From positions 682,001-746,000 of the forward strand of contig NW_027590186.1 of assembly GCF_964213995.1 (NCBI RefSeq): a stretch of 64,000 bases of DNA, in the 5' to 3' direction. Below, piece by piece: positions 913 to 58,069 of the stretch. Position 1 is the first letter of the stretch. The number at the start of each line of letters is the position of its first letter. The notes below the pieces were generated by a model. It was not told the DNA's origin. It saw only the letters and a list, made by a program, of their open reading frames with translations, and did not search any database. This DNA is from Mustelus asterias. Taxonomy: Eukaryota. A program made the translations under genes and the position numbers.

Positions 913-951
913 AGTTTTTGTACGAGGATTTCACTCGTTCTCATCACTGTG
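913..951 (-). other. 23-bp-spacer RSS of the V gene
   Basis: CACAGTG (951-945), 23 nt, ACAAAAACT (921-913). Confidence 0.97.
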
Positions 952-1253
952 AGACTCTGTGCACAGTAATAGACCGCAGTGTCAAACAGCCGCAGCTCCG
1001 AAATAGTCACTCGGTACAAATTGTCTGACTGCTGGACCGAATCAGAAAACCGGGTCCGAGCGAAATCCGCCTTTAATTCAAAACCGCCGTTTTTGTCTCT
1101 CCGGACTGCAAACTCGGGCTGTTTTCCTGGGTATTGACGATACCAGAATAAATAATAAGCATAGTCGGTGAAGGTGCAGTTTAAAGTGACATCTTCTCCC
1201 TCTGTCCGTGTGTGAGGATTCCCGCTGAGTAACAGAATCTCCATCGCTCAGAT
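952..1253 (-). pseudogene. TCR alpha/delta-type V exon, frameshifted in FR1 (pseudogene or assembly indel)
   Basis: Acceptor tttcag precedes 1253. The leader-spliced frame reads (D)LSDGDSVTQRESSH, but TEGEDVTLNC...YYLFWYRQYPGKQPEF...RFS...DTAVYYCAQS is in another frame; the shift lies in a CA run at ~1208-1214. Both Cys and the Trp of the V domain are present. Confidence 0.9.
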
Positions 1254-1960
1254 CTGAAACACACGGTTAAAGAAAGGAAAAAAACATTGATTAAAAGTTC
1301 AATTGAACTAAGGGAGAACATTCACTGACAGTGTAACGTAAAAATATGTATTGAATGTACTGAATCATACCACATTCTCTCCAACTGATCTATGCTCCCG
1401 TTTACAATCCCCTGGAGATTCTTCCCTCTCGCCTCTTCTCAATGCATTTGTCCCTTTCTTCCTCAGCTGTTTAGCTGAGTTTACCTTTAAATTAGTCTTT
1501 GCTCCTCTCCTCAAGTGTTCACTGTGTTAATATGAGTCACATTCTACCCAACTCTTTCTAAAGCTGTTTCTCTCCGATTCCCAGTTGATCTCATTGTTTC
1601 ATTGGAATTGTGGGACATATGTTTGGAATCCTCCCACAAGTGGAATCATCCCCTCCCCGTCCACCACACCAATCCTCGTTATCATTATAAATAGATCAGT
1701 CAGATTTGCGTTAGTTTCTTTGGTCAGTCGAGAAAGTAATCATAATCTTGCATTCTGATAGCTCTCATCTCCCAATCCGAGTACCATTTCTCGAAATCGC
1801 CTTTTCAGTGTGCTTTTCGAATCTATTTTCAAAAGACTAAAACCACTCGCAAGAATTCATTTGTGTTCTACAGCATGTCCAATACCTGTATAACATGAAT
1901 GTCCTGCTTTTCAACTTTATTCCTCCAGAAAATAACTCATTTTTAAAGTGTTAAACTCAC

Positions 1961-2006
1961 CAACAATGAATGTCACCCAGATCAGAGTGAAAACGGGGAG
2001 CCGCAT
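1961..2006 (-). CDS. Leader exon of the V gene (MRLPVFTLIWVTFIV-)
   Basis: ATG at 2006-2004, 15 hydrophobic codons plus G, then donor gtgagt; phase-1 intron to 1253. Confidence 0.9.
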
Positions 2007-2044
2007 TGCTGCTGCTCCTGGATTCCAGGGACTTGTTTCTCCGA

Positions 2045-2105
2045 CAGCTGCAGAAGGTTGAACAAGATAAAGCTGAGAGCATTGGCTGTGGCTGATCTGA
2101 CGTCA
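2045..2105 (-). promoter_or_regulatory. V promoter elements: CRE TGACGTCA, GATA, E-box
   Basis: Perfect TGACGTCA at 2098-2105, ~90 bp upstream of the leader ATG; AGATAA 2065-2070; CAGCTG 2045-2050. CRE motifs are typical of TCR V promoters. Confidence 0.65.
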
Positions 2106-6426: not shown

Positions 6427-6649
6427 ACTTATAAGAAATATTCATTTAGGATCTGACCCAGCTGTTGTGGATCCGCACATCGATGACCTAGTTGATCCTT
6501 AACAGACCCTACTCTCTTCCTTGTTACTCTTTTGCCTTTTATGTATTTGTAGAAGCTCTTTGTATTCACCAGTAGTTCACAATGTAGTCAACTTACTGAA
6601 GGGAGCAGTGACAGCTGTGAGGATTGTGAACTCGCAAACTGGGACGTTG

Positions 6650-7800: not shown

Positions 7801-9055
7801 TGCTAACAGATGAAATGACAAATTTCAGGCCACGGTTCTGTTGCATGCTGAACGAGCGGATGCTCTCAGGGCATCAGGTGATTGTATTTCATTGGATTTC
7901 AATCGATTGACACTTTTGTGTTAATATGTGCTGTGATTGAGAGATCGCAGACACTCCACCGATAATTGTCCATGCAAAAGAAAGTTGTTTTTTATGGTCA
8001 ACACTCTCCTTCAAAAATTGCTCGCTTAAAATCAAAACGTGAAGCTGCAATTCCACTAATTGCCGTTTCCTGGTTTCTGCATTCTCTCGATCCAGAATAT
8101 TAAAGGAGAATGACGTCAATGGAGGTTTAATGGAATACGTAATCATATATATTACTTCCATGGTAAATATCTTTCATATCGTCACCGAGGACAAAGAAGA
8201 AATGCAACACTGATGTGTGGTTTTCGATAAGTTGCCTTGGGACAGAATTTTCATATATCCTTTTCAGTAAAAGGCAGAATTATCTCCTTTGCTCAGCCAA
8301 CTCGGAGTTTCAAAGTCGCAAATGTTTAGCTCAGTTTCTCTCTCCACAGAGTCTTTCCAGCAATTTTCTGTTTTTATTTCAGATCTCCCCTATCATATGT
8401 ACACCTAGACATCCATTATTTCATATTGGCACCGAGAACATTCCTGTCGGTTTAATGTTGCAATTCCTCCTGTGTTTCGTTATATCCAAGGAAATGACTA
8501 ATAACGGCATTTGGTGTGGAAACTAATATTTGATATTAATGCGGGAGTGTTTGACATGTCTGTCGATATGTTGGGCGTTGGATATACATGATTTGTACTA
8601 TGTGTATTGGCTGCAAGTTGTTGATTAATCTCACTCCTTACAACAGCAACATGCATCACATTCTGGAGTACTTCCATGGAGTGGAATGTAAAATGACCAC
8701 TGGGATTTTTTCAAAGTATCAAAATATTACGATGGACCTGAGCACCAGCTGATGGTCCATTATGCGGGATATCTGTTATTGAAACCTGTAAGGGAGAGAC
8801 AAGGGAGAAATGTAGGTGGAGATATGGGAAGAAAACAAGAGGGATTGAATAATTGGAATTGGAGGCGAGACCTGGAGTTAAGCAGAGCAAGAACCGGTGA
8901 TATAAATGAATGAATCAGGAATAGATTTAGAGGAAGATACAATCAGAGAAACAGCTGCAGCAAAACAGACAAATACGAACTAAAACATGGGGAATATTTG
9001 TTCCAAGTGTTATTTTCACTCCCAGATATTTGATGCATTCTGTGTTTTGTTGCAG

Positions 9056-9320
9056 AAATAGTGATGATTCTGAATGATCAATCTGAATTAAGGGTTCTCC
9101 AAGCACAGAGCATAATGCTGGATTGTAAATACTCTCCCTACTCTGTTCCTGTATCCCAGCGAAACTCCGAGGTATTTAATGAGGATTTATAGCGCGGAGG
9201 ATGTGGAAAAATATTGCCTACTTTGTACAAGGGAACACTGTTCCTCAAATGTCACCAGGACGCTTCTCTCCGATACCGCCTTGTGTTTCTGGTGCAGAGA
9301 TCGAGCGGATCATCGCACTG
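9056..9320 (+). pseudogene. Decayed TCR V segment, inverted relative to C-delta
   Basis: Acceptor tgtgttttgttgcag ends at 9055. Across frameshifts it reads ...QSELRVLQAQSIMLDCKYS / PTLFLY.PSETPRYLMRIY ... LSDTAL(C)F(C)A. Possible leader remnant (MLQFLLCFVISK) at 8455-8491. No intact RSS. Confidence 0.6.
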
Positions 9321-10348
9321 ATAGTTCCAGTTAGTGATCAGCAGAGGGCGCGCTCACCCGAGAAACAGGAATAATAAGTGAGAGTAACAGAAATGTATTA
9401 TAATTCCGAGCGAAGGCACTCACCAAAGTGAGTTAGTGGTGCGTCAGCTGACATTTTGTCTTTGGTGTTATTTCCTAGTCTGTATCAATTATTGGCCAGC
9501 CCTTTCCCATCTCCCCTTTCCGTTTCTCGGTCCATTTGATCACAGTCGGTACACAGCGTGCTTTGTGAATGCTTTTTTGCGAATATTACTGAATTTCCCC
9601 ACAATGCCACTGTCATTTCGGGCGTAATTTTCGAGCTTTGTTGTTTCCTGACACCTTTTACGGACCAGAATCTCTGCCTTACCATAACTAGATCAGGATT
9701 TTCTTCTGATGTGAATATCACCAAAGGACACCTTGCCCCGATAAGGACATTAATTATATCCCAGTTCAGTGTTCTTCCATTTACTCGCAGTCACCTCACC
9801 AGACTGGGAATTGTGGACAAAACATGTCGCACATTTTCTCTCTGTTCGCAAGCATGGTTTGAATCACAAATTTAAACTCACTACCGTCCTGTTTCCTTTT
9901 TTCGGGTTTGAACCTTGGAGATTTTGTCATTCAGCCACTGTCCTTTGATGTTATCAGTGATCGTTGGATATGTACGTCGAGATCTCTCTGCTTATCAATA
10001 CTCCTAAGGGTTCTACCTTTCCGATATAATCCCGACATGCTTTGGACCTTCCAAAATGCATTATCTCACACTTGTCCAGATTAAACTCCATCTGCCATTT
10101 TTCCGCCCCAGTCTCCAACCGGTTTATCTTTTGCTGTCGCTGTATCCTCTGACAATCCTCTTCACTCTCGGCAGCTCCACAAATTTTTGTGTCGTCTGTG
10201 AACTTACAATTATACCAGCTACATTTTCCTCCAAATCATTTACATATACTACGAACAGCAAAGGTTCCGGAACTGATCCCTGTGGATCATGGCTAGTCAC
10301 AGCCTTCCAGTCAGAAAATCACCCCTCTACCGCTACCCTCTGTCCTCT

Positions 10349-32541: not shown

Positions 32542-32651
32542 TCAAAATAGCCACACCCTGGCCGTCATCATGACATTGAAGACAATGCTCTTGAAAAACA
32601 AAATTCTTAGCCCCATCACCGTCAAAGACAGAAAGTTCACCCTCAGTCGAT
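32542..32651 (-). CDS. TRDC: TCR delta constant, transmembrane exon: (D)RLRVNFLSLTVMGLRILFFKSIVFNVMMTARVWLF*
   Basis: Acceptor ttggcag; conserved alpha/delta TM Arg and Lys (GLRILFFKS) and N..MTAR; delta-type ending with almost no cytoplasmic tail; donor gtaagg one base after the stop. Confidence 0.95.
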
Positions 32652-33090
32652 CTGCCAAATAAGAGAAACAAATGATAGATCTGGTTTAATGGATATATGA
32701 TTTTGAATTGAAAAACAACTGTATACCTCTAATGTGATATTTTTTCCATTATCTAACAGCTTGGCTTTCGTCCGTCTGTCCATCCCTGTCCTTCCGTCCG
32801 TCTGTCCATCTCTGTCTGTCCGTCCGCCCGTCTGCCTGCCTGTCTATCTATCTTCACCTCTCTTTCACTCTGAATTTCTCTCTCTCTCTCCCCGCCTCTC
32901 CTCCTCTCTCGCTTTCCCCCTCGATTTATATATCTCTCTCCCTCACTCTGTGTGACAATCTATATTTCTCCCCATCTCACTATATGTCTATCATTCGATC
33001 TCCGGGTCTGTATCCGTGCCTATTTGTCCACTTATCAATCTGTCTATTTGCAAGTATTTTACTTTGATAAATGTTGAATAAAGCACATAC

Positions 33091-33153
33091 CGTTTTCCGT
33101 GTCAGTTGATTCTGTCAAGGGATCATTTCGACCTGTAGGGCATTTAGGTTTAC
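33091..33153 (-). CDS. TRDC: TCR delta constant, connecting-peptide exon: (G)KPKCPTGRNDPLTESTDTEN
   Basis: Acceptor ttgcccttccag, donor gtatgt, phase 1/1, 63 nt; carries the inter-chain Cys and joins both neighbouring exons in frame. Confidence 0.9.
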
Positions 33154-34069
33154 CTGGAAGGGCAAAAAAGACATTTGACTTATTAAGCAAGCAAGTGACA
33201 TTACTGTAACCATGTTTGTTCTCAATGTCATTTTGAATAATGTTGTTGTCATAACCAAAAGCCACGAAGAAAGTAAGAATCAAACAGCACGATTGGACTT
33301 GTTCACTTGATTATTCACAACGGAGAAACATTGGTAGCTCTGCCGTTTAGTTCGGCCCAGATCTGAGTTCAAAGAGTGCAGGATCGATTCCCCATCAGGG
33401 ATTAAAACCCAGGATCCAGGGCCGTTCCATCAGTGCAGTATTTCACTGTCTTCCGAAAAAGTCGTGAAACGGAGGCCTGATTTGAGCTCTGCAGTGGATT
33501 AAATGATATCAGGGCATTTCTCCAGAGGAGCGGGGTTCTCCAGTACCCTGGTTAGTATTTAATACTTCCCTAAACTCGGTGATGCACCAGTAGCTGCGGC
33601 TCCTGGACACTGCCCTGAATTATAATAGTTAGCTCTTATTATTTTTATTCATTTACGGAATGTGGACATCGCTGGCAGGTCAGCATTTATTGCCAATCCC
33701 TAATTGCCCCATTCAGAAGGTGGTTGTGAGTCTCCTGCTTGAACCTCTGCAGTCTGTCAGGTGTACGTACACACACAGTGCTGTTAGGGAAGAAGTTCCA
33801 CCATTTTGACGCAGCGACAGTGAAGGAAATGCCGAAACATTTCCAAGTCAGGATGCTGAGTGACATGGAGGGTAACGTCCAGATGATGGTGTTCCCAGGT
33901 ATCTGCTGCCCTTGTCCTCCGAGATGATAACGGTCGTGAGTTTGGAAGATTCAGCGGAAGGAGACTTGGAGAGTTACTGCTGTGTATATTGTGGATGGCA
34001 CACACTGCTGCCACTGTGCATCGGTGGTGGAAGAAGTGGATGTTTGTGAATGGAGTACTTAATGCTAGA

Positions 34070-35077
34070 ACGGCACAGTGGCACAGTGGTTAGTACTGCT
34101 GCAACCCCCCTCACCCCCTCCCCGCCCGCCGCCACTCCCCCACCCCACCCCCCCACCTCCCCGCCCACAGCGTCAGGGACCTGTGTTCGATTCCCGGCTT
34201 GGGTGATTGTCTGTGCAGAGTCTGCACGTTTTCCCCGTGTCAGCGTGGGTTTGATCCGGGTGCTCCGGTTTCCTCCCACAGTCCGAAAGACGTGCTGATT
34301 AGATGCATTGGCCGTGCTAAATTCCCCCTCAGTGTACCCGAACAGGCACAGAGTGTGGCGACTATGGGATTTTCACAATAACTTCATTGCAGTTTTAATG
34401 TAAGCCTACTTGTGACACTAATAAACAAACTGTTAATCAAGCGGAGCTGCTTTGTCCTGGGTCGTGTCAAATTTCTGAGTGTTGTTGGAGCTGCATTCAT
34501 CGAGGCAAGTTGCGAATACACTACCACAGTCATGATTATGTCTTGTGGATGGTGCAGAGAATTTGGGGGATGAGGAGATACGTTACTCACCACAGGATTC
34601 CCAATCTCCGACATTCTCTTGCAGCCACAGCACTTATATGGATAGTCCAGTTCAGTTTCTGAGCAACGTTAACCATCAGGATGTTGATAGTGGGGGTTGA
34701 CCTGATAGAAGTCTACAGGATTATGAGAGGCATGGACAGAGTGGATAGTCAGAAGCTTTTTCCCAGGGTGGAAGAGTCAATTACTCGGGGGCATAGGTTT
34801 AAGGTGCGAGGGGCGAGGTTTACAGGAGACGTACAAGGCAGATTTGTTACACAGAAGGTGGTGCGTGCCTGGAACTCGCTGCCGGGTGAGGTAGTGGAAG
34901 GAGATACGATCGTGAGTTTTAAGGGACACCTGGACAAATACATGAATAAGATGGGAATAGAGCGATATGGTCCCCGGAAGGGAAAGGGGTTTTAGTTAAG
35001 TCGGGCAGCATAGTCGGTGCAGGCTTGGAGGGCCGAAGGGCCTGTTCCTGTGCTGTAATTTTCTTTGTTCTTTGTTC
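34070..35077 (+). mobile_element. SINE (34070-34431) and CR1 3' fragment (34695-35077) in a TRDC intron
   Basis: V-SINE core; DLIEVYRIMRG..TRGH motif. Confidence 0.8.
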
Positions 35078-35871
35078 ATTGTTTCAGTCATGGTAATGCC
35101 ATTACATGTCAAGAGCCGGTTGTTAGCTTCTTTCCTGTTGGAGTTGGTCATTGCCTGGAACATGTGTGGCGCAAATGTTACTTGCAGCTTGTCAGTCAAA
35201 GCCTAGGTATTGTCCAGCTATTGGTGCATTTGTAATGCACTACTTCAAGATCTGAGGTGTCATGAATGGTGCTGAAAATTGTTCAGTCATCAGCGAACAT
35301 CCCAACTTCTGACCTTACAATGGATTGAAGGTGATTGATGAAGCAAATGAAGCTGGTTAGGCCTGAGACACTGAGGAACTCCTGCAGTGAAATCCCCAGA
35401 CTAGGATAATTGACAGTCAATCATTAGTCAGCTAACCTTTCAAGAAGACTACACTTTGAGTGACGATGACACCGAGAGTCCTTCGGTCGTTAAGAGGATG
35501 GATAATATTTAGTGCAAGTTCTTCCTGTCATAAAACATTCTCAGAGGAGGCAGTGGCGCAGTGGCATTGTCACTGGACTGGTAATCCAACGACCCAGAAT
35601 GCTGACCTGGGGATGGCAGCTGCGAAATTTGAACATTTTTTAAAAAATTGGAATTAAAAGTTTCATGATGACCCTGAAACCATTGTCGATTATCGTTAAA
35701 ACTCACTGGTTCACTAACTTCCTTTAGCGAACGAAATCTGCCGTCCTTACATGGTCTGGCCGGCAAGTGACTCTTAAATGTCCTCTGCTGAAGGGCAATT
35801 TAGGACGGGCAATAAATGTTGGCCAAGCCAACGACACCCACATCACGTGAACGAAAATAAAATAAACTTAC

Positions 35872-36183
35872 CAATTTCAGCTGTGGGCGGGATGTTTACT
35901 GAGTAATTTCGATTATCGTGAAATGCCTTGCACGTGATGTTTGGCGATTCCTCGGATTGGGTGAAAGAGAGAAAACCCGAGCTCCTGTAATTCCCGCCCT
36001 CCAATAGGACACTGGGTCTTGTCACATTGACCTCCTGGCCCGATCCCGTGTACAGGGAGAGCTTGATTGTCTTGGGCGAGAAGTCCGAGGCCAAGCAAAC
36101 TGCAGCTGTGTCGATGCCGGTGGCTCCCCGTGGCACTGGCGGGTAAAAGACGCTCAATTTTGGTTCTACCAGGCCTTTCGCCT
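35872..36183 (-). CDS. TRDC: TCR delta constant, Ig C-domain exon: (K)AKGLVEPKLSVFYPP...AAVCLASDFSPK...ITCKAFH...TAEI
   Basis: Acceptor tttcag, donor gtaagt, 312 nt. C1-set domain with two Cys and no Trp; N-glycan sequons NVT, NIT, NYS. The upstream D and the TM type support delta over alpha or beta. Confidence 0.93.
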
Positions 36184-36394
36184 CTGAAAATTTAATAAAT
36201 AAAAGGAAATAATCAGAATCCAACAGAGTGACCTCCTCAAACCTGCTGAGCCATTCGATTAGACCCGCATTTTTTCTGTGTCTTAACCCTATGTGAGTTT
36301 CTCCATGAATTTACCGAATGCTGAGACTGGATAATTAGGGCTTTTTCGCTTGGCACAGAGAAGGCTGAGGAGTGACGCCTCTCTTTCTCTCTCC

Positions 36395-42860: not shown

Positions 42861-43600
42861 TCGCGTTGCAGCAGCTGAGTCATATTTACCTCACAGAGGA
42901 CAGAAGAAAGACATTTAATTTGCATTATTTCGGGAGCGCTGTATACAAATTTCACACAAAGTCAAGCCAAGGATGCACACATGTTTTTCGTGTGAGGTTA
43001 AGTGTCACTGACTTGCAAAGATTACAGGACGATATGGGCGAGCTGGTCAGACAGGTAGAGCAGTGCCAAACGGAATTTAAACCTGAAAAGTGTGAGGTGA
43101 TGCATTTTGCGAGGGGTAAGAAGGCACGGGAATACGCCATGAACTGCAGGACGCGAGAAAGTGCAGAGGACCAGAGGGACCTTGGCATGCAAGTCCAAAG
43201 ATCATTTATGCCGTAGCATTCAAGGCTACAACCAAGTGCTGAAAAATGCGATTGGAATAGATATGGTTATAATGGCTGGAGCAGGCACAATGGGCCGCAG
43301 GACCTCTTCCTGTTCTGTAAAATTCAATGACGATGATTCTACTGTCCCCAAAGCAAGAGCGATGGGCTTAATGGTCTCCTCCATCGTTGCAGGAGTCTAA
43401 TAATTTGCTGTTTGTAAATTCTAACACAGAGTTGTCAGAGGAAGTTTTAATTTTTCACTCCACCCTCTCGCCTCCTGCTCCTCCTAATCAACTCAACAGC
43501 AGCAATTACAGGATAAAGATTCTTTACAGGTGTATGAGAATCGGACATTACTTTCGTAAACTATAACCAGACACAAAATGCAGAGAATAGTTTCACTTAC

Positions 43601-43688
43601 TGGGTTCTACAGTGAGTTTGGTTCCACTGCCAAAGATAAGCTTTCTGGTTGCATAGTTTGCACAGTGATTCCAGATGGTACAAAATCG
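43601..43688 (-). CDS. TRDJ: J-delta NYATRKLIFGSGTKLTVEP (coding 43660-43601) with 12-RSS
   Basis: FGxG motif; donor gtaagt; CACAGTG 43661-43667, 12 nt, ACAAAATCG. Confidence 0.95.
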
Positions 43689-44448
43689 ACATAACCCACA
43701 TGAATAGCAATGTAAGGATTGCTTTTCATGCTAAGGTTTTTGAGATTCGATTTGCTTCCACAGCTGGTTCATTATTTCGTCCAGAAAAAAATGCAAAACA
43801 ACATCCAAGAAAGGATGTTCTGGCTAAAGAGGGAGTGCACCGAAGGTTCACCGGACAGATAATGGAGTGGCAGGACTGACATATGAGGGGAGATTGAGTC
43901 GGCTAGGATTTTATTGTCTGGGGTTCAGAAGAAGGGAGGCAGGAGCAGAAGATCTCATTAAAGCCCATAATGCAGGATTAGACACGGTAAATGCAGGATG
44001 GCAGCAGGGTCCAGAACCGGGGTTCATAGTCAAAGAATATGGGACTGATATGAGGAGAATTTATTTTTCAACAAGAAAATGAAAAGCCTGTGTCATTCAC
44101 AATTACAAAGGTTTAAACAGAACAATGGTACTTATTCGTCTCCCCTCTTTCTTTTCGATCAACTCTCTGGATGGAATCTTCCTATCCCACTAACAGTACA
44201 CAAATCTGCTTCTCAGTTCAATACCATATTACTGAGGCGTGCAGTCCCAACTCCTGTCCCATGTACCTCTAATGACTGGGTAAGCTGAGCTGGATCAAAA
44301 CTGACTCAAAACTGTGCAATCTCTTCGCCTGCATGCCACATATTATATTGGCACTCTGCCCAACTTGACTAGCCTACTAACAACAGAAAACTAGATCACA
44401 GAGGAGATGTGGAGTGAAAGAATAGAAACACACTGACTTCACACTCAC

Positions 44449-44526
44449 TTGGTACAACTGTCACCTGGGTGCCGCTGCCGAACGTTAGCTTTGCGTAGCA
44501 CAGTAACAATTGCTCAGACAGAAACC
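44449..44526 (-). CDS. TRDJ: J-delta YAKLTFGSGTQVTVVP (coding 44498-44449) with 12-RSS
   Basis: FGSG; donor gtgagt; CACAGTA 44499-44505, 12 nt, ACAGAAACC. Confidence 0.95.
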
Positions 44527-45479
44527 TTCTATTGAGATAGCTGTTTCAGATTTCAGACAATTCACGGCAAAGAAAAAGCTGGAACAGTCACTGATTCGCT
44601 GCAGGTAACAGACATTGCATATCTGCCCCTTCCCCACCATCACAGGCTAAATGGGCCGAAGAGCCTCCTTGGATGCTCTCAGATTCTATCAAAGTGAAGA
44701 ATTTCTGAGCCAAGGTAGCCACTGGTCAAATATAACAACAAATATATTTTGACTCTGAAACTTTGCGAGTTAACATAGGAACAAGGGAAGGCTATTCAGC
44801 CCTTTGCGCCTGCTCTGCCAATCTCTGAAATGGCTTAACAGAAATTTGCAACATGGCCCTGCCAGTGACGCCTCAACACCTGGCAGAAAAGAAATACAAT
44901 TCAACAGATTTAATTTGTCAGCTAAGCTTTCTCTCCTTACAGATGCTGCCTGACCTGCTGTGATTTTTCCCACCATTATCTGTTCGCATTGTCATAATCC
45001 TGTTATATTTCGAAGAGGTAAACAGACATGTTGAGTCTGAAAGATGCGTTTATGTTTACTTGAATCAACAGTTACTCGAGCTCATTTTCCAAAAGAGAGA
45101 TATATTTTATCCATTCGTGGGACATGGGCACCGTTGGCTGGCCAGAGTTTATTATCCATTCCCAATTGCCCTTGAGTGTCAACCAAATTGCACATGTTGG
45201 CCAGATCTAATAAGAATGGCAGATTTCTTTCTCTAAAGGACATTACTCAACGAGATGGGTTTTTCCAATAGCGGTTTTCATCGTCAACAGTAGATTCTTA
45301 ATTCCAGATTATTGAATTCAAATTCCACCATCTGCCGTGGCGGGATTTGAATACAGGGTCCCCAGAACACTAGTTGATTTCCTGGATTAATAATCTAGCG
45401 ATAACGCCACTAGGCTATCGTCTACCCCCAGTTTCACCACCTCACAATACTGCAAGGTCACCCAATGAAACTAATATGC

Positions 45480-46750
45480 CAGGTGGTTGGGAAATTATGT
45501 AAGGAGTCAGAGAAGGAGGGAACAAGGATAAAATCAAGAGGTGGAAAAGGGAATACGAAAAATGATATACAGAGAAACCAAGGCCAAAATTCAAAAACGA
45601 GACAATTAATGTTAAAAAGATAAGCTGAAAGGCTCTGTGCCTTAATGCGCAGAGCATTTGCAATAGAGTGGATGAACTAATCTTGCAGATAGATATAAAT
45701 GGGCATGCTATAATTGGAATTACGGAGACATGGCTGCAGGGTTCCCAAGAATGGGAACTGACTGTTCCAGGGTATTCAGTATTTAGGATGGACAGGCATA
45801 AAGGAAAAAGTGGTGGAGCGGCACTGCTGGTTAAAGAGGAAATTAACTGGTGAGAAACTATATTAGCTCTGATAATGTGGAGTCTATATGGGTAGAGTTG
45901 AGAGATACCAAGGGGCAGAAAACATCAGTGGGTGTCATATACAGACCGCGAAACTGCAGTGGTGATGTTGGAAATGGCATTGAACACGAAATTAGAGATA
46001 CATGTGATCAAGGGTGATTTTAATCCGCACGTTGATTGAGTAAATCAAATTAGCCACAATGCTGTAGAGAAGGATTTCCTGGACCGGATACGGGATAGTT
46101 TCCTTGACCAATATGTGAAGGAACCAACGAGGGAGCAGGTCACCTTAGACTAGGTACTGTGTCGTGAGAAGGTAATAATTGCCAATCTAGCTGTGCAAGA
46201 CCCCTTGGGGATGAGTGAACATAACATGAGAGAATTTTTTATCAAGGTGGAGAGTGAAGTAGTTGACTCGGAGACTACTGTGCTGAATCTTAATCAAGGA
46301 GACTATGAAGATATGAGGCGTGATTTGGCCTTCATAGATTAGGGAGACTTACTTAAAGGGATGACAATGGATCTCATAGAGACTTATAAAATTCGAACAG
46401 GACAAGGCATAGTAGATGAAGAGAGGATATTCCCGATGGTGCGGGCGTCCAGAACCAGGGATCTGAGGATTCCGGGTAGACCATTTAGGACGGAGGTGAG
46501 GAGACATTTCTTAACCCAAAGAGTGGTGAGCCTGTGAAATTTATTACCACAGGAAGTAGTTGTTGCCAAAAGATTGAATGTATTCAAGAAGCGGCTGGAT
46601 ATAGCACTTGGAGCGAATGGGATCAAAGGTTATGGGGAGAAAGCAGGCTTAGGCTATTGAGTGGCTGATCAACCATGATCATAATAAATGGCAGATCATG
46701 CTTGAAAGGCCAAACGTCCCTTCCTGCTCCCATTTTCAATGTTCCTATGT
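45480..46750 (+). mobile_element. Decayed CR1 (endonuclease region plus 3' end)
   Basis: IIGITETWL ORF 45668-45853. Confidence 0.85.
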
Positions 46751-47114
46751 TTCCTTCCCGAGAGGAAATTTATGAACCAGATGGGTTTTTCCGACAATCG
46801 ACAATGGTTTTCCTGGTCACCAGTAGATTCTTAATTCCAGATTATTGAATTCAAATTCCACCATCTGCCGTGATGGGATTCGAACCCAGGTCCCTCACAT
46901 ATTCGCTGAGTTTCGGAGTTAATAATTTTGCGGTAATACGAGCAGGACATCGCTTCCCTCCAGTTACATAACTTCACCAGGATGCACGGTCACCCAGTGA
47001 GTCGCACATCCATGTCTGTCACATTGCTGAGGCCCAGAGATTGGTCTGCCACCTGCGGCATGTCTAACTAAGCATTGAGATCTGAGCTCGCTATCCATCT
47101 ATCGAGGGTAACGA

Positions 47115-50100
47115 CTAGGGATTGACAAGGGTAAGATTAGGGCCAGTCAAGGACAGTAATGGGAAGTTGTGCGTGGAGCCTGAAGAGATAGGAGAGGCGC
47201 TAAATGAATATTTTTCGTCAGTATTCACGCAGCAAAAAGACAATGTTGTCGAGGAGAATACTGAGATACAGGCTATTGGACTAGACGGGATTGAGGTTAA
47301 TAAGGAGGAGGCGTTAGCAATTCTGGGCAGTGTGAAAATAGACAAGTCCCCTGGGCCGGATGGGATTTATCCCAGGATTCTCTGGGAGGCTAGGGAGGAG
47401 ATTGCAGAGACTTTGGCTTTGACCTTTATGTCGTCATTGACTACAGGAATAGTGCCAGAAGACTGGAGGACAGCAAATGTTGTCCCCTTGTTCAAGAATA
47501 TAGAACATAGAGCATTACAGTGCAGTACAGGCCCTTCGGCCCTCGATGTTGCGCCGACCAGTGGTACCAATCTAAAGCCGCTCTAATCTACACTATTCCA
47601 ATATCATCCATATGTTTATCCACTAACCACTTGAACGCTCTCAACGTTGACGAGTCCACCACTGCTGCAGGCAGGGCATTCCACGCCCTTACTACTCTCT
47701 GAGTAAAGAACCTACCTCTAACATCTGTCCTATATCTCTCACCCCTCAATTTAAAGCCATGTCCCCTCGTGCTAGCCAACACCATCCGAGGAAAAAGGCT
47801 CTCACTATCCACCCTATTTAATCCTCTGATCATCTTGTATGCCTCTATTAAGTCACCTCTTAACCTTCTTCCCTCGAACGAAAACAACCTCAAGCCCCTC
47901 AGCCTTTCCTCATACGATTTTCCCACCATACCAGGCAACATCCTGGTAAATCTCCTCTGCACCCTTTCCAACACTTCCACATCTTTCCTATAATACGGGC
48001 GGTACGGTAGCACAGTGGTTAGCACTGCTGCTGCACAGCTCCAGGGTCCTGGGTTCGATTCCCGGCTCAGGTCACTGTCTGTGTGGAGTTTGCACATTCT
48101 CCTCGTGTCTGCGTGGGTTTCCTCCGGGTGCTCCGGTTTCCTCCCACAGTCCAAAGATGTGCGGGTTAGGTTGATTGGCCAGGTTAAAAAAAATTGCCCC
48201 TTAGAGTCCTGGGATTAGCGGGTAAAATATGTGGGGGTCGGGCCTGGGTGGGATTGTGGTCGGTGCAGACTCGATGGGCCGAATGGCCTCCTTCTGCACT
48301 GTAGGGTTTCTAAAAAAAAAAAAATATGGCGACCAGAACTGTACGCAATACTCCAAATGCGGCCGCACCAGAGTTTTGTACAGTTGCAACATGAGCTCCT
48401 GGCTCCGAAACTCAATCCCTCTACCAATAAAAGCTAACACACCGTACGCCTTCTTAACAACCCTATCAACGTGGGTGCCAACATTCAGGGATCTATGCAC
48501 ATGGACACCCAGATCCCTCTGTTCATCCACACTACCAAGTATCTTACCATTAGCCCAGTACTCTGTATTCCTGTTACTCCTTCCAAAGTGAATCACCTCA
48601 CACTTTTCCGCATTAAACTCCATTTGCCACCTCTCAGCCCAGCTCTGCAGCTTATCTATGTCCCTCTGTAACCTGCCACTTCCCTCCGCACTGTCTACAA
48701 CTCCACCGACTTTAGTGTCATCCGCAAATTTACTAATCCATCCTTCCACGCCCTCTTCCAAGTCATTAATAAAAATGACAAACAGCAGTGGCCCCAAAAC
48801 AGATCCTTGCGGTACACTAGTAACTGAACTCCAGGATGAATATTTCCCATCAACCACCACCCTCTGTTTTCTTACAGCTAGCCAATTCCTGATCCAAACC
48901 ACTCAATCACCCTCAATCCCATGTGTCCGTATTTTCTGCAAAAGCTTACTACGGGGAACCTTATCAAACGCTTTGCTGAAATCCATATACACCACATCAA
49001 GAAGGGGAGTAGAGGCAACCCTGGTAATTATAGACCAGTGAGCCTTACTTCTGTTGTGGGCAAAGTTTTGGAAAGGATTATAAGAGATAGGATTTATAAT
49101 AATCTAGAAAGGAATAATTTGATTAGGGATAGTCAACACGGTTTTATGAAGGGTAGGTCGTGCCTCACAAACCTTACTGAGTTCTTTGAGAAGGTGACCA
49201 AAGAGGTGGATGAGGGTAAAGCAATTGATGTGGTGTATATGGATTTAAGTAAAGCGTTTGATAAGGTTCCCCACGGTAAGCTATTGCAGAAGATACGGAG
49301 GCATGGGATTGAGGGTGATTTAGCAGTTTGGATCAGGAATTGGCTAGTTGTAAGAAGACAGAGGGTGGTCGTTGATGGGAAATGTTTATCCTGGAGTTCA
49401 GTTACTAGTGGTGTACCGCAAGGATCTGTTTTGGGGCCACTGCTGTTTGTCATTTTTATAAATGACCTGGATGAGGGCGTAGAAGGATGGGTTAGTAAAT
49501 TTGCGGATGACACTAAAGTCAGTGGAGTTGTGGACAGTGCAGAAGGTTGTTGCAGGTTACAGAGGGACATAGATAAGCTGCAGTGCTGGGCTGAGAGGTG
49601 GCAAATGGAGTTCAATGCGGAAAAGTGTGAGGTGATTCACTTTGGAAGGAGTAACAGGATTACAGAGTACTGGGCTAATGGTAAATACTTGGTAGTGTGG
49701 ATGAGAAGAGAAATCTCGGTGTGCTTGTGCATAGATCCCTGAAAGTTGGCACCCAGGTTGATAGGGTTGTTAAGGAGGTGTACAGAGTGTTCGCTTTTAT
49801 TGGTAGAGGGATTGAGTTTCGTAGCCAGGAGGTCATGTTGCAGCTGTACAAAACTCTGGTGCGTCCGCACTTGGAGTACTGCGTACAGTTCTGGTCGCCG
49901 CATTGTAGGAGGGATGTGGAAGCATTGGAAAGGGTGCAGAGGAGATTTACCAGGATGTTGCCTGGTATGGTGGGAAGGTCTTATGAGGAAAGGCTGAGGG
50001 ACTTGAGGTTGTATTCGTTAGAGAGAAGAAGGTTAAGAGGTGACTTAATAGAGGCATACAAAATGATCAGAGGATTCGATAGGGTGGATAGTGAGAGCCT

Positions 50101-50395
50101 TTTTCCTCGGATGGTGATAGCTAGCACGAGGGCACATAGCTTTAAATTGAGTGGTGATAGATTTAGGACAGATGTCAGAGGTAGGTTCTTCACTCAGAGA
50201 TTAGTGAGGGCATGGAATGCCCTGCCTGCAGCAGTAGTGGACTCGCCAACATAAAGGCATTTAAATGGTCATTGGATAAACATATGGATGATTTTGGAAT
50301 AGTGGAGGTTAGATGGGCTTTAGATTGGTTTCACTGGTCGGCGCAACATCGAAGGCCGAAGGGCCTGTACTGCGATGTAATGTTCCATGTTCTAT
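47115..50395. mobile_element. Triple nest: CR1 (+) > CR1 (-, 47499-48996) > HE1 SINE (+, 47998-48325)
   Basis: TSD TCAAGAA at 47492-47498 and 48997-49003; SINE TSD AATA(C/T)GG at 47992-47998 and 48323-48329, with poly-A. Confidence 0.92.
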
Positions 50396-50546
50396 CTTTC
50401 TGAAGTACATTTTACGGACAGAATGCCTTCACTTGTATTTCATGTAATACTTTGTATCGTTGCCCCGGTTGCTATTTGTCAGACACAATATAGCGAAAAA
50501 ATAATCGACATGAAACATAATGAGAGTAACTTCCAATCGTACTCAC

Positions 50547-50624
50547 TTGGCACAACTGTCAACTGGGTGCCGCAGCTTCACAGTATAGTCATAATGTATA
50601 GTATAAAGGGCACAGACATAGACC
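50547..50624 (-). pseudogene. Pseudo-J (DYTVKL / GTQLTVVP; FG codons deleted)
   Basis: Donor gtgagt intact; internal frameshifting deletion; heptamer decayed to TATAGTA, 12 nt, ACATAGACC. Confidence 0.8.
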
Positions 50625-50797
50625 TTCCATTGGAGTGAAGTTGCAGATGTCGTTTAGTAATGATGAAGCATACTCATTAATTCGGAGGCAGGGGAATATA
50701 CAAAGTTCACATGAGGGTGAGCCCTTGAGAACCTTTAAGGAAAGGTCAATTACTTATGTTCCAACCAGATCCAAACTGACGTTTTCAAATGTCTTAT

Positions 50798-50874
50798 TGG
50801 GTCGTAAAGTGAATCTGTTGCCTCTGCCAAAGACAAGTTACAAAGTTCTGGTGCCAGCAGATCTGTACACAATG
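50798..50874 (-). pseudogene. Pseudo-J YRSAGTRTL*LVFGRGNRFTLRP
   Basis: FGRG; in-frame TAA; donor mutated to ATAAG; heptamer CACAATG at 50868-50874, poor nonamer. Confidence 0.8.
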
Positions 50875-51401
50875 GGACAAAAAACTAAACCCAACCACAT
50901 GAGCAGAAGAATGATGTATTTATATTATATTTCTCCTAAGTTTGAGTTTGAATTCAATTTCAGATTTTGCTGACTTCAATAGCCAGGGCAGGTTATATCC
51001 ACGTAAAAATATAAATGTCTCCCCCCTCACTTCCCACCCATTTGAACGTAATAGGTCAATAAATTATTTACTTGCATCGTGTAAAAAGGAACTTTGAGGG
51101 AAAGAATGGTCAGAAACTTAATGCACTTGCTAACTTCAAGTAGCCATTGGCCACCACACTCCCCACAATCTCTGCACAGAATGGAAATGTTTTGTCGGCA
51201 GGAATGGAATAATACACACAACACATGGACCAGTGCAGCAGGTTCAAGCAGGCAGCTCACCACTGCCTTCCACATTGAGGGACAGGCTATGTAAGTGCTG
51301 GCCTAGCCAGCAATGCCCATTTCCTACGCAATAAAAAAACGAGGTAACTTCAGTTACTCACACTCTAACCAGGTCCAAACTGAAAATTTAAAACGACTTA
51401 T

Positions 51402-51490
51402 TGGGTTGCGCAGTGAATTTGTTTCCTCTGCCAAAGATAAGATTCAAAGTTCTGGTGCTAGTACAAAATGCGGCAAAAAGTACAAACACC
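51402..51490 (-). pseudogene. Pseudo-J TSTRTLNLIFGRGNKFTAQP (paralogue of 50798)
   Basis: FGRG; donor ATAAGT; heptamer CAAAATG, 11 nt, ACAAACACC. Confidence 0.82.
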
Positions 51491-51760
51491 TGAGCAGAAA
51501 TATAAGATTTATTTATATTTTATTTATCCTGAGTTTGAGTTTTGAGTTCAATTTCAGATTCTGCTGACTTCAAAAGCCAGGGCAGGTTATATCCTGAAAT
51601 AAATATGTTCCCCCCATCCACCAATTTACATTTAATTCCCACTCCTTGCCTGTTAGCTCCATATGTCATATATTTCTATCCACTTTACAATCTCAGCAAA
51701 TATGGTTCAGATTTTCTGTAAATGCAGGGTGAGACCATTGCACGTTGTGAGGATGCATGC

Positions 51761-51827
51761 GAGGTTCCACAGTGAGTTTTGTTCAAGTACCAAGGATCGG
51801 ACTTTCAGTTGTGGGGATGACACAATC
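51761..51827 (-). pseudogene. Pseudo-J IPTTESPILGT*TKLTVEP, RSS split by a CR1 insertion
   Basis: LGT* replaces FGxG; donor gcatgc; heptamer CACAATC 51821-51827; spacer and nonamer displaced to 52432-52452. Confidence 0.82.
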
Positions 51828-52430
51828 ATAGAGTCATAGAGTCATAGAGGATTACAGCATGGAAACAGGCCCTTCGGCCTAACTTGTCTATGAAGCCTTT
51901 TTTTAAACCCCTAAGCTAATCACAATTGCCTGCATTTGGCCCATATCCCTCTATACCCATCTTACCAATATAACTGTCTAAATGCTTTCTAAAAGACAAA
52001 ATTGTACCTACCTCTGGCAGCTTGTTCCAGACATTCACCACCCTCTGCGTGAAATAATTGCCGCTCTGGACACATTTGTATCTCGCCCCTCTCACCATAA
52101 ACCTATGCCGTCTAGTTTTAGACGTCCCTACCTTTGGGGAAAGATACTGACTATCGAGCTGATCTATACCCCTCATTATTTTATAAACCGCTAAAGATCA
52201 CACCTCAATCTTCTACACTCCAGATAAAAAAGTCCCAGTCGATCCAGCCTCAAACGATCAAGTCCCGGTCGCATCCTAGTAAATCTTTTCTGCACTCTTT
52301 CTAGTTTAATAATATCCTTTCTATAATCGGGTGACCAGAATTGTACACAGTATTCCAAATGTGGCCTTACCAATGTCTTGTACAATTTCAACAAACCGTC
52401 CCAACTCCTGTATTCAATGTTCTGGCCAAT
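51827..52430 (-). mobile_element. 5'-truncated CR1 inserted into a J RSS
   Basis: (CATAGAGT)n tail; RPHLEYCVQFWSP; TSD CAATCAT. Confidence 0.9.
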
Positions 52431-53049
52431 CATGGAAGATGCTACACAAACCCGTAACTCCCGTGCTGACAGTATTGCAAGAGGTTGTTTTTGACCTGCT
52501 TGACCTGGTGATTTGACCATAGATTGGGATTCAAATTGTAATGCCAGGTGATCTCCAAAGCAAAAATGCAACTATTCCTCTCCCTGAAATCCATCCCCAT
52601 TTAACCCTTTTGCTTTATTTGCTTTACTCTATTTCAAAAAGTACAAGACATAGCTAGCAGTTTAACTTTCCTTCCATGCAGTTTCAATTAACTTCTGTAT
52701 ATTCCCTGGCCCTGTTGTTCCTCCCAAAATACATCAGCTTACACTTTTTAGAGTTAAATTTCAATTTTCCACTGCTCTGCCCATTTGACCAGTCCTTCAA
52801 TATCGACCTGTAATGTAAGGCTTTCCTCCTCGCTATTTACCACACCACCAATTTGTATATCATCTACGAATTTACTGATTATATCCTCTGGATCTCTATC
52901 GTTATAATTAATTATCTAATGATACATAAATCCATCGAACAGCTTGTTTTTAATTTTAAGCGTTACTTTCCCTCTTTGTCACCATTCGCCAGACATGGAT
53001 TCTGCAGAAATATCCATCGAAGGGTAAAGAGAAATCACCTGGCACTTAG

Positions 53050-53142
53050 TTGGCACAACATTCAGTTGTTTCCCGTAGCCAAAGATGAGTTTATAAGTAC
53101 CGTCATAGTAATGAGCACCGTGAATAGTGGCCAGCAGAAAGC
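53050..53142 (-). pseudogene. J HYYDGTYKLIFGYGKQLNVVP with dead splice donor
   Basis: Open frame with FGYG; donor is CTAAGT; CACCGTG 53116-53122, 11 nt, GCAGAAAGC. Confidence 0.85.
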
Positions 53143-53774
53143 TACCAGTGCATCAGCTCATTCAGATTCCATCCAGTATACACAGCAACACTGGCATAAT
53201 CACTGATGTCAGTGGGAGCCTCGACAACTGCCATGGTGTGCGAATGGTAAATCTTAAAAATTATCTATCGCCAAGAGATGAACAATGCATCTGATAACAT
53301 TCTACAAAGCTAAGCACATCCAAGGCCAAATTTAAAGCCAAGTTACCTCTCTGCACCGACTGGTGCATTTAGGCAGAATTCTTCTGCCTTCAGTGATAGC
53401 TATTTCTGGAACACGTCGCTCGACTTTTGTGAAGGGCTTAGAGCTTGAGAGAGCCATACTACATATCAAGCGTTGCTGAGCAGGAGTCTCCCTCTCACTC
53501 CCAATCTTTGGCAGCGTTGCTTTCTCACCTTCCTTGTTCATCAAGTCCAAGGGTAGGGACTCGGACCCGGCGTTTCTAGCTCAGAGGTAGGGATTCTAGC
53601 CCATTGCACCACAAGACCTCCCCAAGTTATGAATGGCCATTATATTGCATCTCCTCCCTTTAAGCCTGTACTGATTTTTTTTAAAAACACGACTTGGTGA
53701 TATGTTTGGAACTGTAAATATTGATTGTCATCCTACTGTAAATAGATCATGGTGGAAGATAGTTGAGGACTTAC

Positions 53775-53831
53775 TGGGCTCCACAGTGAGTTTGGTCCCT
53801 TTGCCAAAGGCAAGCTTCTCAGTTCAGTAGT
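53775..53831 (-). pseudogene. Pseudo-J (YY*)TEKLAFGKGTKLTVEP
   Basis: FGKG and donor gtaagt intact; 5' in-frame TGA; no CAC heptamer upstream. Confidence 0.85.
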
Positions 53832-55392
53832 AACAGCTACTACAAAATATAGACCCAGCCATATGAACACAGGGCTAGCTCACATTCAGTTTGTATCATG
53901 TCACTTCTTTTAATTAGCTTCTCTCCTGAACCAAATATAACCGTTCCCTCCCTCTCCCTCACACTTAGCTCCCACTGTTTTTTTGACTATATCAGGGAAC
54001 AATATTTGGATAATGAATTGACTGTGTTTCACAATTTCCATCTTCACCGGTACTTCTCCCTGAACACCCAGGAGACACAAATCCTAGGAAAATAGTTTGA
54101 CATCAACACATACGAACATGCAAAGTGGGAGCCGGAGTAAGGCACTGGGCCACTCCAGCCTAACCGCTATTCAGTAAGATCATGACTGATCTGATTGTAA
54201 CCTCACCCCCAGATTCCTGCCTACCCCCGATAACCGTTTATCCCTTGTTAATCAAGAATCTATCGAGCTGTCTTTAAAATAATCAAAGGCCCTGTTCCCC
54301 CTGATGTTTGAAGAAGAGAGATGACGAGACTCACTACTCTTTAAGAGAGAAATAAGTCTCCTCATATCTGTCTTTAAAGGAGTGACCCTTTAATTTGAAC
54401 TATAACACCTCGTTCAAAACATTAACTTGTTGTTGATAATCGTTGACCAACACTTCACTTTGAGGCCTCATTTCAAGCGTGCATTCGTGTCAGCGGTTTA
54501 ACAAATACCGGAGACCATAGGACGACGGGGCAGACGGATGCCATTTGGCCCATCGGTCATTCAATGAGATCATGAATTATCTGATGTGATAATTCTGAAT
54601 ACCTCTTTCCTGTTGTATCCTCGTAACCCTCGATTGCCCTGTGGGTTAAAAATCTGAACATTCAACCTGTACAGCGCTCTGCGGCAAATGATTCCACAGA
54701 TTCACTGCTGGCTTGAAAGAAGAAAATCTTCATTATATAAATGGGCAACCCCATACTTTGGGATTATGACCTCTGGTCCTACAAGAGGTAATAACGTCTC
54801 AGCATCTAACCTTGTCATGTCCCCTGAGAATCCAATAAGTCTCAATAAGGTCACATCGCATGCTTCTAAACTCCACTAAGTACAGGCCCAACATACTCAA
54901 ACTCTCCGAAAAAACATATCCATACCTGGGATCAAAGTAGTGGCCTTCCCTGAACTGCCTCCAATGCCAGTATAGATTTCCTAATGTTAGGGAACAGTGT
55001 TCCAGATGTGGTCTAAATCGTACCTTGTATAGTTTTAGCAAGATTATTAGTTTTAACAAAGACAAGCTTGAAAATGAAATATATGTAGATAATTATTCAA
55101 ATCAGTGGGCATTTGACTCAACCTGCTAAATGGGCATTTTCTATCCTATTTGTAACCCAATTTCAGTTCGATGTCACATCACTGATGCCTAATGTTTCAA
55201 CTGGTGTTGATGACACGGCTTAATAAACAGTGAGCTGAACTCGATACTCGGTGCCTAATAGCTTAATTGATTGGTGCAATGGCTTCTCCTTCATTTCAAG
55301 CACTGCCTTGGCTCTTTATCGGCCTTTCACCCGACACCATTCAGCAGAAATCTGTATCTAATAGGAGGAGATGAAGGTGGACTCGCACTTAC

Positions 55393-55483
55393 TTGGCACA
55401 ACCTGCAGTCGGGTGCCGCTGCCGAATATCAGTTTTTCAGTATCAGCATTATACACACAGTGACTATTGCCCAAGCAGAAAGC
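55393..55483 (-). CDS. TRDJ: J-delta YNADTEKLIFGSGTRLQVVP (coding 55455-55393) with 12-RSS
   Basis: FGSG; donor gtaagt; CACAGTG 55456-55462, 12 nt, GCAGAAAGC. Confidence 0.95.
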
Positions 55484-55949
55484 TTCCACTGGGGCAGGCC
55501 ACAGAGACTTCAGCTATTTCAAAACCCTGGGGAGTACATGCTCACTTAGCATAATTTTATGACCGATCTGCCCTCAAAACAGATGCAACCGATTAAATAG
55601 CAAATTAGAAAGAGACAATTCTGGATAAACTGTGTACGTGTGGCAGCACGTGTAGAGAGAGAAACAAAGCTAATAATCCTGCGATCCCGGGAATCAGTCT
55701 GGCATTAGGAAATATTGTTTTCTTTTTTTTAAAAGTTGGATCACTATTCTTTGAAGTATTGTGGTATCAATAGTTGGTACGTGTGAGATACTTAGTTGTG
55801 TGAGGAACTTCTTTATGTGCAAGTGGAAAAGGACACATTCCTTCATCATTGTATAATTCATCAGGTTCGTTTGTCACAATGGCAAATTTTCTCCCCACTT
55901 TTGCAATGAGGCCAAAAACTTCTGAGTGCAAAATGAATCTTCTCAAATT

Positions 55950-56285
55950 CATAGATCATAGAATCCCTACAGTGTAGAAGGAGGCCATTCGGCCCATCGA
56001 GTCTGCACTGACAACAATCCCACCCCAGGACCTATCCCCACAAATTTATCCCACTAATCCCTCTAACCTACATATTCCCTGACACTAATGGGCAATTCAG
56101 CATGACCAATAAACATAGCCCGCACATCTTTGGACTGTGAGAGGAACCAGAGAATCTGGCGGAAACCCACGCAGACACGGGGAGAACGTGCAACCTCCAC
56201 ACAGACAGTAACCCAAGCCTGGATTCGAACCTGGATTGCTGGAGCTGTGACGCAGCAGTGCTAACCACTGTGTCACCGTGTCACC
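55950..56285 (-). mobile_element. HE1-type V-SINE
   Basis: Same head, core and tail as the other copies. Confidence 0.85.
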
Positions 56286-56314
56286 CGTAATTGATGCCAA
56301 TAGATTCTACTCAC

Positions 56315-56406
56315 TTGGCTCCACGCTCAATTTGGTTCCACCACCGCATATTAATGGTCTGTAAGAAGCACGAGCGTACACTACGATTACTCTCCATGTC
56401 AGAACC
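56315..56406 (-). CDS. TRDJ: Atypical J (open frame) YARASYRPLICGGGTKLSVEP (coding 56378-56315)
   Basis: CGGG replaces FGxG; donor gtgagt intact; weak RSS CACTACG 56379-56385, 12 nt, GTCAGAACC. Confidence 0.8.
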
Positions 56407-57716
56407 CAAAGACAGGGAGCATGCATGCCAAAATTCAAAAAGGGCTTTAGTCATTGCTCAGGGCAGTTAAGCAGGTCTCGCTACAGAATACTATTTCCTG
56501 CAGTTTGTTTGGATCAAAAGTTAATCAGAAACTTTTACAATCTTCCAAGTCATCCATCTCTTAATTTCCCAGGAAAATAAGTCAGAGCGTGACTGGCTGG
56601 GAGTTCTCAATGTACACATCCAAGCGCGGTAACACGTGTCGAGAATTCCATGGCTCACTTTCGAACGGAATTTTCAAATCCATACAAAAATGCTGCTTTT
56701 GGGATTTCGTTCAGAATTGGAACTAAAGGAAATCTACACCATTGAGCCCCAACCCACCCCCTCCCCTCAATCCCAACTCACCCCACCTTTATAAGTGTAA
56801 CTTAGAACTGTGATTTTGATGCCAGAAGGCTGCATAGATGATTGTAGTCCTAATTCTGGGTTCCATTGAAATAGGTAACACAAACATGACTTTGCATTTC
56901 AGACAGGTTCCCTACCACTAGAATTCATACACAATAATGGATTCATTTGCACACTGAAGTGATATTTGAAATATTCTTTATTCATAGTCTGAGGGCAAAG
57001 ATTCATAAAGTCAGAGAAGTCCACTGCACAGAAAACGCCTTTCGGCCTATCATGTCTCCGCCAGTCAAAGACAAACCAAATAACTATTCTAATCCCATTT
57101 TCCAGCACTTGGCCCATTGCCGTGTATGATATGACATCACAAATGTATATCTAAATACTTCTTAAATGTTGTGAGGGTCTCGGCCTCCATCACCATTTCA
57201 GGCAGTGAGTCCCAGACGCTCATCACCCTTTGGGTCAAAATGTTTTCTTCACATCCCCTCTAAATCTCCTGCCCCTACCTTAAATCTATGCCCCTGGCTG
57301 CTCTCTGCTCACTCAACTAAAGGGAAAATTATCTTCCTGTCTTCTCTATCTATGCCCCTCATTATGCTGAAGGGCTTTTTCCAGTGCTGTCTCCTTCTAT
57401 GACCCTATGACTCTATCGTGGTGAGTATCTTCCAGATATCTATCGAGGTGCCACTTACTTGTACTACACACAGCCAGATCATTGACATATCTCCCTGTTG
57501 GCAGCACACTTGTGTTGTCATGATAGAGGCCAGTTAAATGTTTAAAGAAAATACTTCGGAAAATCTCAATGCCCAGTCAAGCTACGCTTCAAATTCCCAA
57601 AGATCCCTGCTCATCCATAAAACAACAATGATCATTAAAATAATTGTATGTCTCAATTAAGTCACAGGGGGCAAAATAACATGAAGAGAGAACATTATCC
57701 AGGATTAGTTACTTAC

Positions 57717-57804
57717 TGGGTTCCACAATCAGCCTGGTCCCGTTGCCAAAGATGAGCTTAGCCTTTTCATATGTTGCACAGAGTTTGATCCCGTAACAAG
57801 ATCC
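57717..57804 (-). CDS. TRDJ: D-proximal J-delta TYEKAKLIFGNGTRLIVEP (coding 57776-57717) with 12-RSS
   Basis: FGNG; donor gtaagt; CACAGAG 57777-57783, 12 nt, ACAAGATCC. Confidence 0.95.
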
Positions 57805-57986: not shown

Positions 57987-58069
57987 GGTTATTGTACGGG
58001 CGTTGAGGGAGATTCAGCTACTGTGGTCCCACGTAGCCCACCACAGTGATACATGCCAGAACAAAAACT
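57987..58069 (-). CDS. TRDD: D-delta GTGGGCTACGTGGGAC (58041-58026) with 5' 12-RSS and 3' 23-RSS
   Basis: On +: GGTTATTGT 57987-57995, 23 nt, TACTGTG 58019-58025, 16-nt D, CACAGTG 58042-58048, 12 nt, ACAAAAACT 58061-58069. Open in all three frames (VGYVG, WATWD, GLRG). Confidence 0.96.

Follow-up and report, generated by a model that had tools for sequence, protein, structure and literature searches.

A decayed, inverted V segment 3' of a TCR delta constant gene in Mustelus asterias

Mammals carry a single reversed V-delta gene between C-delta and the J-alpha array, and its location and orientation are conserved in platypus and opossum (PMC3457774 and PMC2275272, both in part). In mouse, this gene (Trdv5) joins by inversion within the INT2-TEA loop (PMC4995090, excerpt). 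A sequence-only reading of a 64,000-nt stretch of the Mustelus asterias genome (hereafter the window) had proposed an inverted V pseudogene 3' of C-delta as a positional counterpart of TRDV3/Trdv5 in a cartilaginous fish. Two questions are raised by this locus: whether the segment is a V gene at all, and if so, whether its position reflects an arrangement shared with mammals or the local organization of V genes in sharks.

The delta unit of the window and its copies

The minus strand of the window carries one TCR delta D-J-C unit, which consists of the following parts:

57987..58069, minus strand: D-delta segment (58041-58026) with a 12-RSS and a 23-RSS
43590..57800, minus strand: about 11 J-delta segments, approximately half of them decayed (J scans)
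32545..36184, minus strand: TCR delta constant gene, three exons (sequence matches)
about 36184-35867, minus strand: C-delta Ig exon
about 33151-33090, minus strand: C-delta hinge exon
32652-32545, minus strand: C-delta transmembrane exon

Among 118 candidates, nine matched the C exon: eight Mustelus asterias protein models, at 84-99% identity, and a whale shark chain, at 50%; the best PDB matches of the whale shark relative, P0023, were TCR delta chains. About 11 J-delta segments is a high count for a delta locus, and those near 56357, 53840, 51815, 51432, 50849 and 50571 look decayed. Several isolated sites were also observed. An orphan 12-RSS at 59135-59162, upstream of D and followed by neither a 3' RSS nor a J, is possibly a decayed second D, and a 12-RSS-like site at 39751, in the interval that separates the last J from C exon 1, is not followed by a J motif. 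On the plus strand, a J-like nucleotide pattern with a GT donor was noted at 26070-26125; the match, at 26075, is out of frame, lacks an RSS and is probably due to chance.

The Mustelus asterias records contain eight C-delta models (P0015-P0022), each on its own contig, the contigs ranging from 34 kb to 20 Mb. They show seven distinct exon-1 sequences in two subgroups that differ at 16-19 of 103 residues, and the C-delta of the window is a further variant, 2 of 103 residues from the nearest model. Five of the eight carry a NAR-TCR V together with a supporting V and a sixth carries the supporting V alone, the linkage of these other copies to V arrays being that of automated gene models. Stretches of the models that derive from J-region or intron DNA match the window at up to 100%, implying that whole D-J-C blocks were copied recently. 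These records suggest repeated delta cassettes rather than one C-delta. In P0015 and P0016 the same V-like broken exon is present just upstream of D-J, and it is not found in this window.

Some of the eight models may be haplotigs; even if the seven sequences were haplotig pairs, we infer that at least four C-delta loci would be present. It is very unlikely that the multi-cassette context is altogether an assembly artefact made of haplotigs or misjoins, in which case the V neighbours would be unreliable. Contigs shorter than 2 Mb account for seven of the eight models, two models have an identical exon 1, two differ by one residue, and a V gene of the window that is co-oriented with C-delta is interrupted by one frameshift next to a short AC run, all of which would be compatible with such an artefact, but seven distinct sequences with subgroups 16-19 residues apart exceed the alleles of one diploid locus, and the window contains no N anywhere. 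Extra delta-type D-J-C units beyond the canonical position are also known from the TCR-mu clusters, avian TCR-delta-2 and the newt TRD duplicates (PMC12698447, PMC5278385 and PMC3457774, each in part). Unlike these tetrapod duplicates, the Mustelus copies are conventional C-delta genes, with the NAR-TCR double V in five of the eight, as judged from gene models.

Homology and decay of the inverted V segment

The first V 3' of C-delta lies 23 kb beyond its last coding exon, on the opposite strand. C-delta, J and D are all encoded on the minus strand, so that the segment faces the D-J cluster, as the sequence-only reading had held. The relevant features are:

9056..9296, plus strand: decayed TCR alpha/delta V exon, pseudogene (frameshift-aware alignments with shuffles)
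9037..9055, plus strand: splice acceptor of phase 1, in register with FR1, its AG ending at 9055
8455..8491, plus strand: probable decayed leader exon of 12 hydrophobic codons, GT donor absent
8111-8118, plus strand: CRE octamer TGACGTCA, a possible but weak promoter remnant
9338..9351, plus strand: predicted CTCF-like motif with one mismatch, 42 bp past the V end, where the RSS would be expected

We aligned the region, allowing for frameshifts, with 238 TCR alpha/delta V domains (16 chondrichthyan, the others mostly teleost; five records without a clear name, as well as domains shorter than 80 residues or without a V-end motif, were excluded). The best single domain scored 78 on 9051-9296 of the plus strand, compared with 39.7 +/- 4.2 (maximum 53) for the best of 238 on shuffled DNA, where 78 was reached in 0 of 100 shuffles. 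The three top domains, a post hoc choice, scored 72-78 here and at most 47 elsewhere, except at the V gene at 951. When the 238 domains were used as a profile, each of the three penalty sets placed 9067-9295 first among the plus-strand sites of the window (26.2, 20.7 and 34.3 bits; runner-up sites, 19.0, 19.0 and 21.5), and its score was reached by none of the 500 dinucleotide shuffles per penalty set. The extrapolated window-wide E ranges from 0.0002 to 0.15 depending on the penalty set. A minus-strand profile peak at 558 proved to be the gap-extension tail of the V at 951.

Comparison of the remnant with the V alignment by hhalign gave an E of 9.2e-5. HMMER in six ungapped frames recovered FR1 alone (E 6.2), a site surpassed only by the clear V at 951. 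A read-through of the remnant, with X placed at the first break, had seven PDB matches at E<=10, five of them, with E about 1, to V chains of TCR alpha. The motifs of the remnant are collinear from FR1 through the second Cys and V end. The FR1 Cys is encoded by TGT at 9124-9126, in the frame fixed by the phase-1 acceptor. The stretch PTLFLYPSETPRYLM was found at 9137-9181, one frame over, where the dot in the earlier translation is wrong and Y and P adjoin. A DTAL stretch at 9272-9283 is followed by TGT TTC TGGT GCA, which leaves the V-end motif two edits away, as had been described. Two other leads were dropped: a relationship of the V-like exon of P0015/P0016 to the FR1 of the remnant (score 37, matched by 34 of 238 V domains), and a single Rfam match within 6500-10500 (E 0.5), which is due to chance.

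Could the segment be a chance resemblance or a transposon fragment? No Pfam V-set match was found in single frames or in the read-through, strict pairwise frameshift alignment against 15 V proteins gave uninformative scores of 24-49, and the upper value of the window-wide E, 0.15, was obtained under the strictest penalties. However, no shuffle in either series reached the scores of the remnant, its motifs are in order over the whole exon, and the surrounding 7570-9956 is free of tandem repeats and does not recur as a repeat anywhere else in the window. Such an origin is exceedingly improbable and has largely been refuted already. Judged from its sequence, segment 9056..9296 is a true V remnant, and homology, orientation and lesions all fit the proposal that this cartilaginous fish has an inverted V pseudogene on the 3' side of C-delta.

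The remnant is heavily damaged. Its frame changes near 9066, 9136, 9209-9215, 9247 and 9290, the last of these at the second Cys, and the exon has lost about 5 codons of CDR1, 3 codons that include the conserved Trp, and about 5-8 codons of FR3. The acceptor at 9055, previously called strong, is present and in phase; its strength is less distinctive, as 351 of the 3937 YAG sites in the window are equally pyrimidine-rich. The leader-like ORF does begin with ATG at 8455 and is hydrophobic, to a degree equalled by 20 of 2281 ATGs in the window, but AA occupies 8492-8493 instead of the donor GT. For comparison, the neighbouring V at 951 has a leader of 15 codons and a GTGAGT donor. The CRE is indeed located at 8111-8118, and 344 bp separate it from the leader ATG (92 bp in the neighbouring V); four such octamers occur in the window, where 0.37 are expected. 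Upstream of the leader-like ORF, a second acceptor-like site (8370-8390, plus strand, ending near 8383) resembles the acceptor of the V at 1252 and has no V homology behind it.

No recombination signal was detected 3' of the remnant, the best 23-type score being equalled by 26% of window tiles. A candidate RSS remnant at 9330/9359 was rejected: it has 4/7 and 5/9 matches, no CAC, and lies 36 nt from the Cys. The end coordinate proposed earlier, 9351, marks the CTCF-like motif and not an RSS. Having lost its frame, the Trp, the RSS and the leader donor, the remnant is neither RAG-cleavable nor domain-encoding. This TCR alpha/delta V segment is old and dead.

Origin of the inverted position

The remnant shares its inverted orientation, its place 3' of C-delta and its facing toward D-J with human TRDV3, mouse Trdv5, opossum TRDV6 and the inverted V-delta of platypus. 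The mammalian gene is single, intact, RSS-bearing and rearranging, and is located between C-delta and J-alpha. Unlike it, the shark remnant is dead, has no RSS, and is followed by another V with no J-alpha within the window. This second V lies 7 kb further 3' of C-delta and has these parts:

921..2105, minus strand: second V, co-oriented with C-delta (V-set E 4e-13)
2098, minus strand: CRE
2006-1961, minus strand: leader
1252-952, minus strand: V exon
from 951, minus strand: near-consensus 23-RSS

It is 74% identical to a bamboo shark V and intact save for one frameshift near 1213, beside the short AC run, which is either the mark of a young pseudogene or an assembly indel. Multi-domain antibodies dominated the output of a PDB search with this V. 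For this V, the D/J target has to be situated past the start of the window. Its presence at 2006-951 means that the remnant is not a single V, as the mammalian gene is. Three J scans found no minus-strand J in 1-32500, and hence no J-alpha was detected in the 32.5 kb on the 3' side of C-delta, whereas the same scans recovered 5 to 11 J segments 5' of C-delta. In stingray the gap between the delta and alpha models is 79 kb (PMC12227049 Table S1), compared with 32.5 kb visible here, so J-alpha could still follow beyond the window start.

The affinity of the remnant appears to be TRAV-type rather than V-delta-3, although weakly so. It aligns best with TRAV domains of the PxLFWY type (mouse 2C TCR alpha V; Paramormyrops, P0108; Sigmodon, P0074). 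These matches are distant, come from a teleost-heavy set and include no intact shark member among those retrieved. Chondrichthyan domains rank 28th to 237th of 238 against the remnant. The family call is soft, given that the reference set of 238 domains has only 16 from chondrichthyans and no identified TRDV3/Trdv5. V-delta-3 chains (e.g., 7lli_L, which is in the PDB set) are absent from the weak matches of the remnant at E<=10, and no preferential match to such chains was seen.

V genes of elasmobranchs lie on both strands. In epaulette shark, 15 of 26 V models oppose the TCR-alpha model, and the V lists of white shark, catshark and stingray are also mixed (PMC12227049 Table S1). The window resembles this elasmobranch antigen receptor complex array, in which TCR alpha/delta-type V genes and pseudogenes occur in both orientations (PMC12227049). 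A difference is that in catshark (15.6 kb) and stingray, delta is followed by alpha with no V model between them (PMC12227049 Table S1, in which remnants would go unlisted), and here V genes are present 3' of C-delta.

The reading that we favour, with a probability of about 0.65, is that the remnant is an ordinary member of a mixed-orientation V array around a duplicated delta cassette, and that its orientation is incidental. The remnant would be one of the V segments lying on either strand around the D-J-C-delta cassettes of smooth-hounds, and cassette duplication would have set a D-J-C unit among them, leaving this segment 3' of C-delta. With the unit placed amid a V array, the orientation of the remnant would come down to about an even chance rather than to a conserved arrangement. 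When intact, its ancestor would presumably have had a 23-RSS and been able to join D-delta by inversion, as any convergent V could. The decay of the remnant far exceeds the divergence of the C-delta copies, and the remnant thus predates the duplications; a point against this reading is that it may have been copied as a component of the ancestral unit.

An ancient counterpart of TRDV3/Trdv5, that is, an inverted V of the ancestral jawed vertebrate that decayed here and was copied with the cassette, is improbable. In its favour, the remnant is the V nearest to C-delta on the 3' side and has the inverted orientation, such advanced decay would suit a great age, and the arrangement is kept in platypus and opossum (PMC3457774 and PMC2275272, excerpts). 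An inverted V after C at the beta locus as well as the delta locus has also been cited as a sign of ancient duplication (PMC12227049). Against this, the matches at E<=10 include five TCR alpha V chains and no V-delta-3, all weak at E about 1, and within the window it is another V that follows rather than J-alpha. Catshark and stingray show no V between delta and alpha, at the level of gene models, which would miss remnants, and in salmonids TRDC is followed by TRAJ, with every V gene beyond TRAC (PMC8559430, excerpt). The earlier claim of a positional counterpart is not supported in view of the second V, the lack of visible J-alpha, the several C-delta genes, the mixed V strands and the TRAV-type affinity. 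The TRDV3/Trdv5 reading is weak, and the likeness of position is more likely a coincidence than a sign of shared ancestry.

A CTCF-like motif and the meaning of the locus

The motif at 9338-9351 was detected with a consensus that we take to be that of CTCF. Two sites with one mismatch occur in the window, where 0.92 are expected, and at least two were seen in 20 of 100 shuffles. The other, at 20473-20486, has surroundings (near 20200-20600) that look non-repetitive; both are on the plus strand and sit between C-delta and the V genes. By the orientation convention, as we assume it to be, the 9338 site points to C-delta.

The putative site could be a still-used, TEA-like 3' loop boundary of the delta cassette beside a V that is itself dead. 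This is unlikely, though somewhat less so than an ancient counterpart of TRDV3/Trdv5, and it would fit either origin of the remnant. It would agree with the rarity of such sites, the distance of 42 bp from the V end and the direction toward C-delta, but two sites are close to chance, the call depends on the motif alone with a consensus that we presume, and no convergent partner with at most one mismatch is present in the window. A precedent is found in mouse, where the INT2-TEA loop confines Tcrd recombination (PMC4995090, excerpt). A broader version is as doubtful as the ancient counterpart: the remnant would descend from an inverted V already present 3' of C-delta before the split of sharks and bony vertebrates, and together with the CTCF-like site it would mark where an ancestral D-J-C-delta loop domain has its 3' edge. 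Smooth-hounds would have copied that whole domain several times, each copy becoming a delta cassette with NAR-TCR, and a shark would thus have a TCR delta of cluster-like organization.

In full-text literature, excluding most subscription papers, Ott 2021 and Deiss 2019, we found neither an inverted V after C-delta nor more than one C-delta gene reported for any shark, and the supplement of the elephant shark genome (PMC3964593) has 0 occurrences of the five terms searched. As a dead V gene, the remnant is of little importance. If it were conserved across cartilaginous fish, an inverted V after C-delta would date to the origin of jawed vertebrates and would support the derivation of the beta and delta loci from one duplication, an idea put forward in PMC12227049. 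The multi-copy C-delta context of our favoured reading matters more than the remnant and is the better lead. A single delta-alpha translocon has been described in cartilaginous fish (PMC6795676, excerpt), and several C-delta genes in one shark would be a departure from it.
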